Shown: piece after piece, positions 7,094-9,580 of the stretch
Numbering within the stretch: the first letter of the stretch is position 1
Layout of the letters: each line of letters begins with the position of its first letter
Virus record (IMG/VR): IMGVR_UViG_3300005076_000002
Coordinates: 96,001-160,000 of that record
Reading direction: 5' to 3' (one strand)
Origin: a virus
Lineage: Duplodnaviria; Caudoviricetes
DNA length: 64,000 nucleotides
The notes under the pieces: generated by a model
Told to the model about the DNA's origin: nothing
Database searches by the model: none
What the model saw: the letters and a program-made list of their open reading frames with translations, nothing else
Program-made: the position numbers and the translations under genes

Positions 7094-7441
7094 ATGATGG
7101 CTAATTATAACGGGTATAACTTGGCACAGCTTTTGGAGTCTGTGCTTAAAGCGTACCCTGGCGTAGTTCCTGCGCTTGATCTGTTGACCGATGGTTTGTC
7201 ACCGGAGTATGTGGCATTCCATCGTGAGTCTGTTAAGGCCCATACCGGCCTTATCCACTTCAAGCACCGTGGTGTGGTGTACCAGCTTACCCGCGTGTCC
7301 AACATTCGTAATACGAACGGTTACGAGCGTTACACGTACGCTATCTGGGACGATGAACACCAACAGGCAGATGATCCCAACATTGCATACTCGATCTACA
7401 TAGACGAGTTCCTGCCGTGGGTAACAATACCGCTGACATAA
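7094..7441 (+). CDS. Hypothetical protein
   Basis: 115 aa, AGGAGG RBS, ends at terminator. Confidence 0.75.
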   Translation: MMANYNGYNLAQLLESVLKAYPGVVPALDLLTDGLSPEYVAFHRESVKAHTGLIHFKHRGVVYQLTRVSNIRNTNGYERYTYAIWDDEHQQADDPNIAYSIYIDEFLPWVTIPLT

Positions 7442-7477
7442 AGAGAAGAGGGCTTTCGCCCTCCTCTCTTTTTTTTT
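7441..7477. terminator. Bidirectional intrinsic terminator
   Basis: AGAGAAGAGGGC-TTTC-GCCCTCCTCTC followed by T-tract, between convergent genes. Confidence 0.88.
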
Positions 7478-7478
7478 G

Positions 7479-7847
7479 TCAGTTGGTCAAATTTTTCTTT
7501 ACTTCACCAGACAGAGATATCTCCGACTTCAAGGCCCGTTCGGCCTCGGCTTTCAGTTCTTCAATGAATGGACGCGGCATGTCGATATACTGCAAGAGCG
7601 ATATACCGTACTTAGCAATGTCATAATCTCGGAACTCTTTAGCTCGATGAGTAAACAAAGAACCGTTGGATACACGCTCCTCCTCCGCAATACCAATGAG
7701 ATTCGGACCATAGTCCAGATCATAGGTTTCGGCGTAGGCTTCGACCAACATCATCTTAGCCTCAATGTAAGTGGGCTTCACTGAGAGCTTGGTGGTGTCG
7801 GTTCTTAGAAGATCGTCTACCGCAGTAAGGTTCCCCGAATCCGTCAT
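7479..7847 (-). CDS. Conserved protein, tail-assembly-chaperone T-like/T4 gp51-like; probably expressed as a -1 frameshift extension of the upstream gene
   Basis: YGISLLQYIDMPRPFIE motif; no RBS before ATG; frame open upstream to the T8 tract at 7937-7944. Confidence 0.65.
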   Translation of the reverse strand: MTDSGNLTAVDDLLRTDTTKLSVKPTYIEAKMMLVEAYAETYDLDYGPNLIGIAEEERVSNGSLFTHRAKEFRDYDIAKYGISLLQYIDMPRPFIEELKAEAERALKSEISLSGEVKKNLTN

Positions 7848-7882
7848 GTAGTGCTTTCGCCGGTCGGAGAACAGGCCAGACC

Positions 7883-9535
7883 TTATTGACCCTGTTCCAA
7901 CATAGCCAGCATGCTGGTTTTCTGTCTGGTAAGTGTAAAAAAAATCCGGTCAATGGGCATGGGGACGATAGAGCGGAAGCGACCGGTGTCGGTCTCATCC
8001 ACAGTGCCACAGGCTTTGCAGCGCGATGCGGCATAGCCTACAACCACGATAGTGCTGGCTTCGATGAACTCAACAACCTGATCTTGGAACTTGACAAAGA
8101 AGCCGTCGTTCGCAGAGAGGATATCGAGAGACTCGACGATAGTCGCACGATCGACGATGGTCAGCGGGTTGGCAGTATCGGTGTTGAAGATGATCTTCTC
8201 AACGAAGTGGCCGTATTTACGCATGGCACGTGCCTGGATATGGCTGTCCAGGAAGGCCTTCCGCTCCGCATCGGTATTGTAGCTGGACAACGCAACGGCT
8301 TGTTGCTTCTCGATGTCCTCAACCCACTGACGGCCGCTCTCGGCGTATTCAGACAGGCTACCGGTACGCAGATGGATTTCCACGTTGTCGTTGAACTTGA
8401 CGACGCGCTTATCGGACAGCTTGAACTCGGCCTTGTACTCGGCGATCTCAGCATCGGTGATGCTGTTACGCTTCTTAACCAGCATGTCCATCTGTTTCTT
8501 GTTCAGGCAGGTCTTATCGACCCAGGCCATGCGGCTGAAGTGCATGCGAGTCTCATGCTTGTGACCACACTTGGGATTGGCACATTCGATCAGCCACGGG
8601 TAACCGTTCGGATACATCGTCGCCAACATGGTGTTGATCAGGGTCGGATAGTCCATCGGATCAATGCGATCCATCAGTGACTGAACCATGCCGTCGGACA
8701 GGTTGGCCACGTTGGTGGAGGTGACATAGCTCAACGCAAATGTTGCCAGCTCACGTACAAAGATAGAGCTAGTCGCAGACAGCAGCAGACCAGAGGTAGA
8801 CATGCCGACCGCAGCACGCTCCATGGCCAGACGGTAGTCGAGGTTGATCAGGTCGGTGTCCGGCGGACAGGACATCTCGATATAGATACCGGAGTGATAG
8901 AGCGGTTGCAACAAAGAAGTGCCCAGGTTGGATGCACGACGCAGCAGGGTCAGTGCAGCGCTACCCTTAACGATATTACCGCTAGCCTCGAGCCGAGGCT
9001 GTGCAGTACCAACACGCTCACCGCCGTTATCCAGGCTCTGTACCCACTGGCTGTCTTTCTCGGCCAGACGCATGGAATGCAGTGCATGCGGAGTATAGTT
9101 GGCAATCAGTCGGGTTTCGTGATCACCAAACTGACCACCGTTGCGAACTTGGGTGTACATCATGTCCGCAAAGGGGAGGTTGAAAGAATGGCCAGGCAAA
9201 CCAAATACCGGCTTGGTATTGGAGTTGTCCAGGGTCTTACGCTCCTCGACGTAATTGATGGAGACGCCGACCAGACCACGGTCTTCCAGCTCCAGCGCCA
9301 GTCCCTCACGTTCTTCGATGGTGGAAGGAACGGTCGGACCGTCCTGGTCGCCAGTATTGCCAGCGTCAACTTTAGCAGTTGTCGCATCGGTCGCTACTTC
9401 TGTAGTTACCGCAGCCGCCGGCTCAGCTACTACTGTCGGTTCTACTTCAACAGTTGCTTCCGGCATGGTCTCGACGACCGGCTCAGTTGCAGAGATAGGA
9501 TCCACGGTAGGGAGGTCATCAAATTGATCAGACAT
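7883..9535 (-). CDS. Conserved core protein (phiKZ gp77-like), T4 gp26-like hub/tail assembly protein
   Basis: 550 aa; CANPKCGHK and CKACG zinc knuckles; ends RIFFTL; AGGAG RBS. Confidence 0.75.
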   Translation of the reverse strand: MSDQFDDLPTVDPISATEPVVETMPEATVEVEPTVVAEPAAAVTTEVATDATTAKVDAGNTGDQDGPTVPSTIEEREGLALELEDRGLVGVSINYVEERKTLDNSNTKPVFGLPGHSFNLPFADMMYTQVRNGGQFGDHETRLIANYTPHALHSMRLAEKDSQWVQSLDNGGERVGTAQPRLEASGNIVKGSAALTLLRRASNLGTSLLQPLYHSGIYIEMSCPPDTDLINLDYRLAMERAAVGMSTSGLLLSATSSIFVRELATFALSYVTSTNVANLSDGMVQSLMDRIDPMDYPTLINTMLATMYPNGYPWLIECANPKCGHKHETRMHFSRMAWVDKTCLNKKQMDMLVKKRNSITDAEIAEYKAEFKLSDKRVVKFNDNVEIHLRTGSLSEYAESGRQWVEDIEKQQAVALSSYNTDAERKAFLDSHIQARAMRKYGHFVEKIIFNTDTANPLTIVDRATIVESLDILSANDGFFVKFQDQVVEFIEASTIVVVGYAASRCKACGTVDETDTGRFRSIVPMPIDRIFFTLTRQKTSMLAMLEQGQ

Positions 9536-9557: not shown

Positions 9558-9580
9558 AATGGGCGGTTTCCCGCCCACTT
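9558..9580 (-). terminator. GAAA-tetraloop hairpin between two minus-strand genes
   Basis: Minus strand AAGTGGGCGG-GAAA-CCGCCCATT, then CATTTATG and RBS. Confidence 0.55.

Follow-up and report, generated by a model that had tools for sequence, protein, structure and literature searches.

The gp77-like gene of a jumbo phage is probably decoded in two ways by a programmed −1 ribosomal frameshift close to its 3′ end, one product stopping in the zero frame and the other continuing into the open reading frame (ORF) that follows. The gene lies on the minus strand of the 64,000-nucleotide stretch of viral DNA analysed here (the window; positions 96,001 to 160,000 of IMG/VR record IMGVR_UViG_3300005076_000002, a virus record of 219,689 bp). 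Its phiKZ counterpart is PHIKZ077, and that of the downstream ORF is PHIKZ076.4. Sequence comparison makes a programmed −1 shift very likely when its transcriptional variant (slippage of the RNA polymerase) is counted together with the ribosomal one; we infer that the event is ribosomal. No description of a gp77 frameshift was found in a literature search, which covered few papers from subscription journals, and the genome records looked at annotate two separate hypothetical genes, the second often with an arbitrary or truncated start. The features of the region are the following:

7883..9535, minus strand: gp77-like zero-frame gene (550 aa, short isoform, phiKZ gp77 homolog)
7937..7943, minus strand: slippery heptamer T_TTT_TTT (U_UUU_UUU in the mRNA), within a T8 run at 7937-7944
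7479..7943, minus strand: −1 extension ORF, 154 codons including both Phe codons, plus the stop at 7479-7481
7883..7943, minus strand: putative dual-coding overlap of the gp77 3′ end (frame 0) and the extension start (frame −1)
7479..7847, minus strand: "small gene" given by the ORF finder (122 aa, phrog_7580, PHIKZ076.4 homolog)
7897..7917, minus strand: hairpin CCAGCAUG-CUGGC-UAUGUUGG, starting 19 nt 3′ of the heptamer
7448..7477, no strand assigned: hairpin between convergent genes with T/A runs on either side, likely a bidirectional terminator

The probable slip site and its conservation

Read on the minus strand, codons 531-534 of the gp77-like gene are ATT TTT TTT ACA and the preceding codon is CGG. 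An earlier note on this DNA, made from its letters, had drawn attention to this T8 run and proposed a −1 frameshift on it. The slip would occur with codon 532 (TTT) in the ribosomal P site and codon 533 (TTT) in the A site, the heptamer being located 18 codons before the TAA stop. The −1 frame of the window becomes open only two codons ahead of the heptamer. It reads FFYTYQTENQHAGYVG... and FFYTYQTENQHAGYVGTGSIRSGLFSDRRKHY-M..., passes through the ATG at 7847 with no stop and ends at 7479, as the note had described. No Shine-Dalgarno (SD)-like motif is present 5-16 nt upstream of that ATG, in agreement with the ribosome binding site (RBS) said to be missing there. A slip at codons 532/533 would yield 531 + 154 = 685 residues while the unshifted product has 550, which are the sizes anticipated (550 and ~685 aa), and the predicted junction peptide IFFYTYQTENQHAGYVGTGSIR agrees with the −1 translation.

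The use of TTT at this position was also said to go against a preference of the gene for TTC. Within the gene this preference is weak (7 TTT and 11 TTC among the Phe codons outside the site) but it is strong across the window, where TTT accounts for 35% of Phe codons, and across the homologous genes described below. T_TTT_TTY is found in only 3 of the 38 Phe-Phe (FF) pairs of the window; two further in-frame heptamers of this type are present at FF among its 57 long ATG-initiated ORFs.

Conservation of the arrangement was assessed in 35 homologous loci. These comprise 18 annotated phage records, metagenomic relatives (96%, 67-68% and 45% identity), further family representatives, and five IMG/VR loci that came from single-protein scans. 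The set includes phiKZ, SPN3US, Goslar, PCH45, RSF1, Ea35-70, JM-2012, Vibrio phages and metagenomic relatives, and falls into 21 clusters at <50% protein identity. All 21 have an ORF that runs on in the −1 frame past the aligned Phe-Phe site, which is far beyond chance ((1/3)^21, ~1e-10). The heptamer at the aligned site is T_TTT_TTY in 27 of the 35 loci, G_TTT_TTT in three, A_TTT_TTY in two and CTT_TTT in two (pVa-21-type Vibrio phages). Where Phe occupies the P site its codon is always TTT (33/33 loci), although TTT makes up 34% of the Phe codons in the rest of these genes, and the A-site residue F533 is invariant among the aligned homologs. The comparison of homologs that the earlier note had proposed as a check therefore revealed neither TTC codons nor other frames: TTT is retained at the slip site, and so is the −1 relation of the ORF that follows. 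The extension counted from the slip site is 149-175 residues long in 33 loci. The two exceptions are a contig that ends early and the record of Pseudomonas phage RVTF4, which carries a frame break.

Two cases among the loci deserve separate mention. In RVTF4 (PQ015378.1; locus L007, 2637-3160) the extension ORF is interrupted past its 60th codon, and homology resumes in another frame. The conserved linker is kept in the −1 frame, and the break may most simply be an indel or an assembly error in the record, or it may reflect a genuinely disrupted long isoform. In Vibrio phages pVa-21 and pVp-JHP1101 (L001/L004), the closest named relatives of the window at 37% identity, the slip site encodes Leu-Phe (CTT TTT A) and not Phe-Phe. 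These phages have the −1 frame motif GYVG in common with the window and a heptamer A_AAT_TTG is found 6 codons downstream, so the slip site may have been relocated in these phages, or slippage may involve a single tRNA.

The opening of the −1 frame lies immediately ahead of the heptamer in many phages. Between the heptamer and the gp77 stop, and exactly there, four-way nucleotide identity reaches 93-96%, compared with 40-55% in the flanks; such a peak is the signature of dual coding, and the synonymous fraction in the overlap is 0.8 in the −1 frame versus 0.18 in frame 0. A linker of 43 codons follows the gp77 stop and precedes every ATG that the relatives have in this frame. Codon differences among the window and three relatives at 67-68% identity give for this linker a synonymous fraction of 0.53 in the −1 frame versus 0.08 and 0.14 in the other two, a value close to that of the downstream domain (0.62). 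Judged by these substitutions, the start-less linker is under purifying selection in the −1 frame only. The zero frame is maintained as well. Among the best 150 of the 1513 family representatives (at 50% identity) all proteins end within ~15 residues after the FF region (two within ~60), and a zero-frame stop shared so widely is universal and no assembly error. Conservation also extends to the zero-frame residues that follow FF (FFTL..QK/R), for which the model shows a terminal helix at high confidence, with a predicted local distance difference test (pLDDT) score of 94.

Initiation signals of the downstream ORF are not conserved. Records place its start at ATG, GTG, TTG or other codons, and hardly ever does an SD-like motif precede it. 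The first ATG in the extension frame is found anywhere from residue 33 to residue 142 depending on the phage, and in phiKZ (88), Kwan (126), JM-2012 (142) and Ea35-70 (117) it lies beyond the invariant Tyr of the conserved domain. The window ATG at 7847 is replaced by a His codon (CAC) in two of its 67-68% relatives (L022 and L024), with the residues on both sides conserved. The annotated ATG of PHIKZ076.4 corresponds to residue 88 of a 167-residue extension, and the situation in KTN4 (L012) is alike. Since this start follows the conserved Tyr, what is annotated as an 80-aa protein probably represents only part of the real product. With frameshift decoding the "next gene" would be mainly or only a C-terminal extension of gp77.

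Proposed decoding mechanism and alternative explanations

We propose that most ribosomes would stay in frame 0 and terminate at 7883, producing the 550-aa protein, whose final 17 residues form the end of a helix at the C-terminus. Some would instead move back by one base while a tRNA-Phe sits on each of two UUU codons, 532 in the P site and 533 in the A site, a slip favoured on U_UUU_UUU because both anticodons re-pair perfectly. Tyr (UAC) would be read next, with 152 more codons to the stop at 7479. The resulting 685-aa isoform would have the end of the C-terminal helix exchanged for a flexible linker followed by a small helical domain.

Frameshift stimulators are typically a hairpin or pseudoknot positioned 5-9 nt downstream of the heptamer, or an SD-like sequence upstream, and many phage sites work without them. 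The stem CCAGCATG/TATGTTGG that had been put forward as a candidate is present at 7917-7897, but a role as frameshift stimulator was not supported. The hairpin begins 19 nt past the heptamer and the region folds no better than shuffled sequences (z −0.7). The 67% relatives retain the hairpin, a single G-U pair having become A-U in L025, but the 45% relative lacks it. A long-range stem CCAGAC/GUCUGG was rejected as a stimulator, being broken in L022 and L024. As no conserved stimulator was found, the heptamer alone probably sets an efficiency that is modest, as at many phage sites.

Several points weigh against the proposed decoding. No conserved or thermodynamically significant downstream structure was detected across the 35 loci (z from −2.4 to +1.0) and no upstream SD-like stimulator is evident, so that efficiency may be low. 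Four clades have non-canonical P-site contexts (G_, A_, or CTT). The FF pair is conserved as protein sequence, which accounts for part of the T-run, though not for the exclusive use of TTT nor for the preceding T. Finally, the 685-aa fused protein is itself a prediction from sequence.

The same observations must be weighed against three other explanations. Homopolymer runs can support slippage by RNA polymerase, as in Thermus dnaX and in insertion sequence elements. The phage or host enzyme might accordingly add one U on the T-run, and the edited mRNA would then be translated normally. The run is T8 in the window and T7-T8 in most relatives, and the comparative sequence data fit both mechanisms. 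The layout is nonetheless kept with only T5-T6 in PS119XW (A_TTT_TTC), in the pVa-21 type (CTTTTTA) and in the Phabio type (G_TTT_TTT), lengths that are short for efficient polymerase slippage and yet allow re-pairing of the A-site tRNA-Phe. The phase of the run is X_XXY_YYZ throughout, but this would already be imposed by the two FF codons. We regard transcriptional slippage as unlikely on this balance. Absence of any recoding would make the small ORF an ordinary gene translated from its own ATG, GTG or TTG, and the T-run a by-product of a Phe-Phe motif combined with tight gene packing. Public records and gene callers do annotate two genes, the window has an ATG at 7847, and FF is conserved as protein. 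Such an explanation has to accommodate a −1 relation in all 21 clusters (~1e-10 by chance), starts that are not conserved, lack an RBS and are often placed inside the conserved domain, purifying selection in the −1 frame over both the start-less linker and the overlap, TTT at the P site in 33/33 loci, and a −1 frame that in many phages opens just before the heptamer; it is accordingly very improbable. Hardly credible at all is an artefact in which a homopolymer miscall splits one continuous gene of 685 aa. Homopolymers are error-prone in some sequencing chemistries and the RVTF4 record does have a frame break inside the extension, but the frame agrees in all 35 loci, obtained from isolate genomes, IMG/VR, ENA and Logan assemblies. 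The conserved FFTL..QK/R tail with its confident helix, and the termination shortly past FF of all of the best 150 of 1513 family members, likewise contradict a miscall. Programmed −1 ribosomal frameshifting is thus retained as the preferred explanation.

Predicted fold and relation to tail assembly factors

The earlier note had identified the pair of ORFs as a tail assembly chaperone (TAC) of the lambda G/GT type, an identity that did not withstand comparison: the upstream product has 550 aa, no Pfam TAC domain is recognized in it, and its gene has helicase and RNA polymerase genes as neighbours. In its full form the proposal is that the pair is a true G/GT (or P2 E/E+E′) chaperone that coats the tape measure protein and recruits tube subunits, its gene being merely unlinked from that of the tape measure. 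Decoding is laid out alike in both, with a C-terminal domain added by a −1 shift close to the 3′ end; gp77 is not a modelled virion component, and its relatives by predicted fold are tail or baseplate assembly factors. These likenesses extend to lambda G/GT, P2 E/E+E′ (which slips on a T-run) and Mu gp41/42 alike. All have a −1 heptamer near the 3′ end and a next ORF without an efficient start of its own, their two isoforms share the N-terminal body, and the likely role is in morphogenesis and not in the virion. The differences are nevertheless substantial. The upstream product is 476-705 aa long in the relatives, against ~100-150 aa for G proteins, and its fold is unrelated. There is no TAC annotation in Pfam or PHROGs, and the extension shows neither similarity nor a fold match to T domains. 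In all the phages looked at the gene is flanked by helicase and RNA polymerase subunit genes instead of lying between those for the tail tube and the tape measure, and the fold leads point to another family, the T4 gp26/gp51 hub chaperones. A genuine G/GT chaperone is therefore improbable. Size, fold, domain content and gene position all being outside G/GT, the closest description is a hub-chaperone-like core gene with a G/GT-style −1 extension. Outside tail assembly, T7 gene 10 (10A/10B) and Escherichia coli dnaX (tau/gamma) are long genes in which a −1 shift close to the end fixes the ratio of isoforms with different C-termini. The two predicted gp77 isoforms would likewise differ only at the C-terminus. 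T7 10B carries a short extension on a capsid protein whereas here a conserved domain of ~150 aa would be added. In dnaX the shift truncates the product and occurs on A_AAA_AAG with SD and hairpin stimulators, while no stimulator was found here.

An AlphaFold2 (AF2) model of the 550-aa protein was built from 83 sequences and has a pLDDT of 86 and a predicted template modelling score (pTM) of 0.83, the N-terminal ~70 residues being disordered. No fold match in the PDB was obtained at E≤0.001 (Foldseek). With VIA-align the highest Z among 48,161 chains was 6.4, from helical hairpins only; fold novelty is not claimed. A Foldseek search of BFVD returned the protein's own orthologs first and then models of ~250 aa named baseplate hub assembly chaperone, T4-like baseplate hub assembly protein or baseplate hub subunit (~15 baseplate hub rows; E 9e-5 to 4e-2, probability 0.7-1.0, template modelling (TM) score by target 0.43-0.54; both sides are predicted models). 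The T4-like hub assembly chaperones among them have E 9e-5 to 6e-3 and TM by target 0.45-0.54. In the ESM Atlas, also composed of predicted models, a structural match was found at TM 0.46-0.47, and 23 of 30 named language-model feature matches carry PF12322. T4 gp26 and gp51 both belong to this Pfam family (T4_baseplate; NCBI name "gp26 family baseplate hub assembly chaperone") and are therefore paralogs. In phage T4 (L039, 3803-5229) their genes are adjacent and divergently transcribed.

Sequence-level tests speak against placing gp77 in that family. PF12322 does not match the window protein and reaches only E 0.27 with 2 of the 83 relatives (Pfam); it has no match in six-frame searches of six phage genomes, and hhalign against an alignment of 26 gp26/gp51 sequences gave a probability of 0.7%. 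Because all these tests were negative, the gp26/gp51 link is a fold-level lead and not a membership. Paired Cys motifs and a C-terminal FF-x-L occur in gp77 as in T4 gp26/gp51, a likeness that may extend to the fold, by predicted structure, and to a non-virion character of the proteins, and T4 gene 26 also has two annotated products, 26 and 26′. The systems differ in that gp77 is more than twice as long and has no sequence match to PF12322, that 26′ is annotated within the gene 26 ORF without a frameshift, and that the FF of T4 is encoded by TTC TTT, which is not slippery.

The extension consists of a linker of ~40 residues modelled with low confidence and a helical domain that bears a conserved ...EAY... 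motif; its AF2 model has a pLDDT of 66 (low confidence). Fold searches with it matched only its own orthologs, tail and tape-measure chaperone rows appearing at E ~3 and probability <0.1. It has no sequence match in the PDB, and a feature search of the ESM Atlas gave no usable match. Neither gp77 nor the extension is present in the solved virion structures of phiKZ or Goslar, and a preprint on the Goslar virion makes no mention of gp80-82 (10.64898/2026.04.21.720040). PHIKZ077 and the family profiles match no PDB chain although entries for phiKZ and Goslar tails are there, which is consistent with a non-structural role.

Taken at the level of fold, a role of gp77 in baseplate-hub or tail assembly is plausible, if still tentative. 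We consider it possible, at slightly less than even weight, that gp77 is the Chimalliviridae counterpart of the T4 gp26/gp51 chaperones and that the frameshift fixes the ratio between its core and extended forms in tail or baseplate assembly. A more speculative proposal, which we hold to be rather doubtful, is that the long gp77 isoform is the so far missing chaperone for tail initiation in jumbo phages that form a nucleus, a factor of gp26/gp51 type with an independently acquired G/GT-style extension. If true, a fixed ratio of short to long protein would couple formation of the baseplate hub to the recruitment of another component (e.g., a tape-measure-like protein or a tube initiator), and control of stoichiometry by recoding would hold generally for the initiation of contractile tails, also outside the classical TAC family.

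The gp77 family, its genomic context and its significance

The 550-aa protein matches PHROGs 4585 and 8054 and the small ORF matches PHROG 7580, all of unknown function; a Pfam search found no family on either protein. The large protein was detected in 223 jumbo-phage records (tblastn). Alignments identify in its core four near-invariant Cys residues (C318, C323, C506 and C509) and an FF-T-L motif at residues 532-535. The window DNA is present as Logan contigs in 12 public runs, from wastewater and related samples, and no near-identical DNA was found in the phage collection or in IMG/VR.

The neighbourhood in the window and in all annotated relatives looked at comprises a ResIII helicase, RNA polymerase beta-like subunits and homologs of gp78, gp79 and gp80, with no tail genes. 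A GC-rich hairpin (AGTGGGCGGGAAACCGCCCATT, 9558-9579 on the minus strand) occupies the 56-nt gap between the end of the gp78-like gene (9592) and the start of the gp77-like gene (9535). It was flagged as terminator-like, has a T-poor tail and may attenuate or process the transcript. On the minus strand there is no terminator-like site between the gp77 stop and the extension ORF. Past the extension, where the genes at 7094..7441 (plus strand) and 7847..7479 (minus strand) converge, the hairpin at 7448-7477 (GAGGGC-TTTC-GCCCTC) is flanked by A9 and T-rich runs and is likely a bidirectional terminator that ends the gp77/extension transcript.

The recoding signal is kept in every nucleus-forming jumbo phage examined, including phiKZ, SPN3US, Goslar, PCH45 and Pseudomonas phages relevant to therapy. 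Recognition of the frameshift would correct how a core family of 1513 representatives is annotated, and it predicts a protein of ~685 aa that proteomics and ribosome profiling could look for. It is also a reason, in essentiality screens and in phage engineering, to leave the T-run undisrupted and unrecoded. The fold resembling T4 gp26/gp51 would tie an uncharacterised core gene to tail or baseplate assembly, and the slip site provides a testable handle on how these phages build very large tails.

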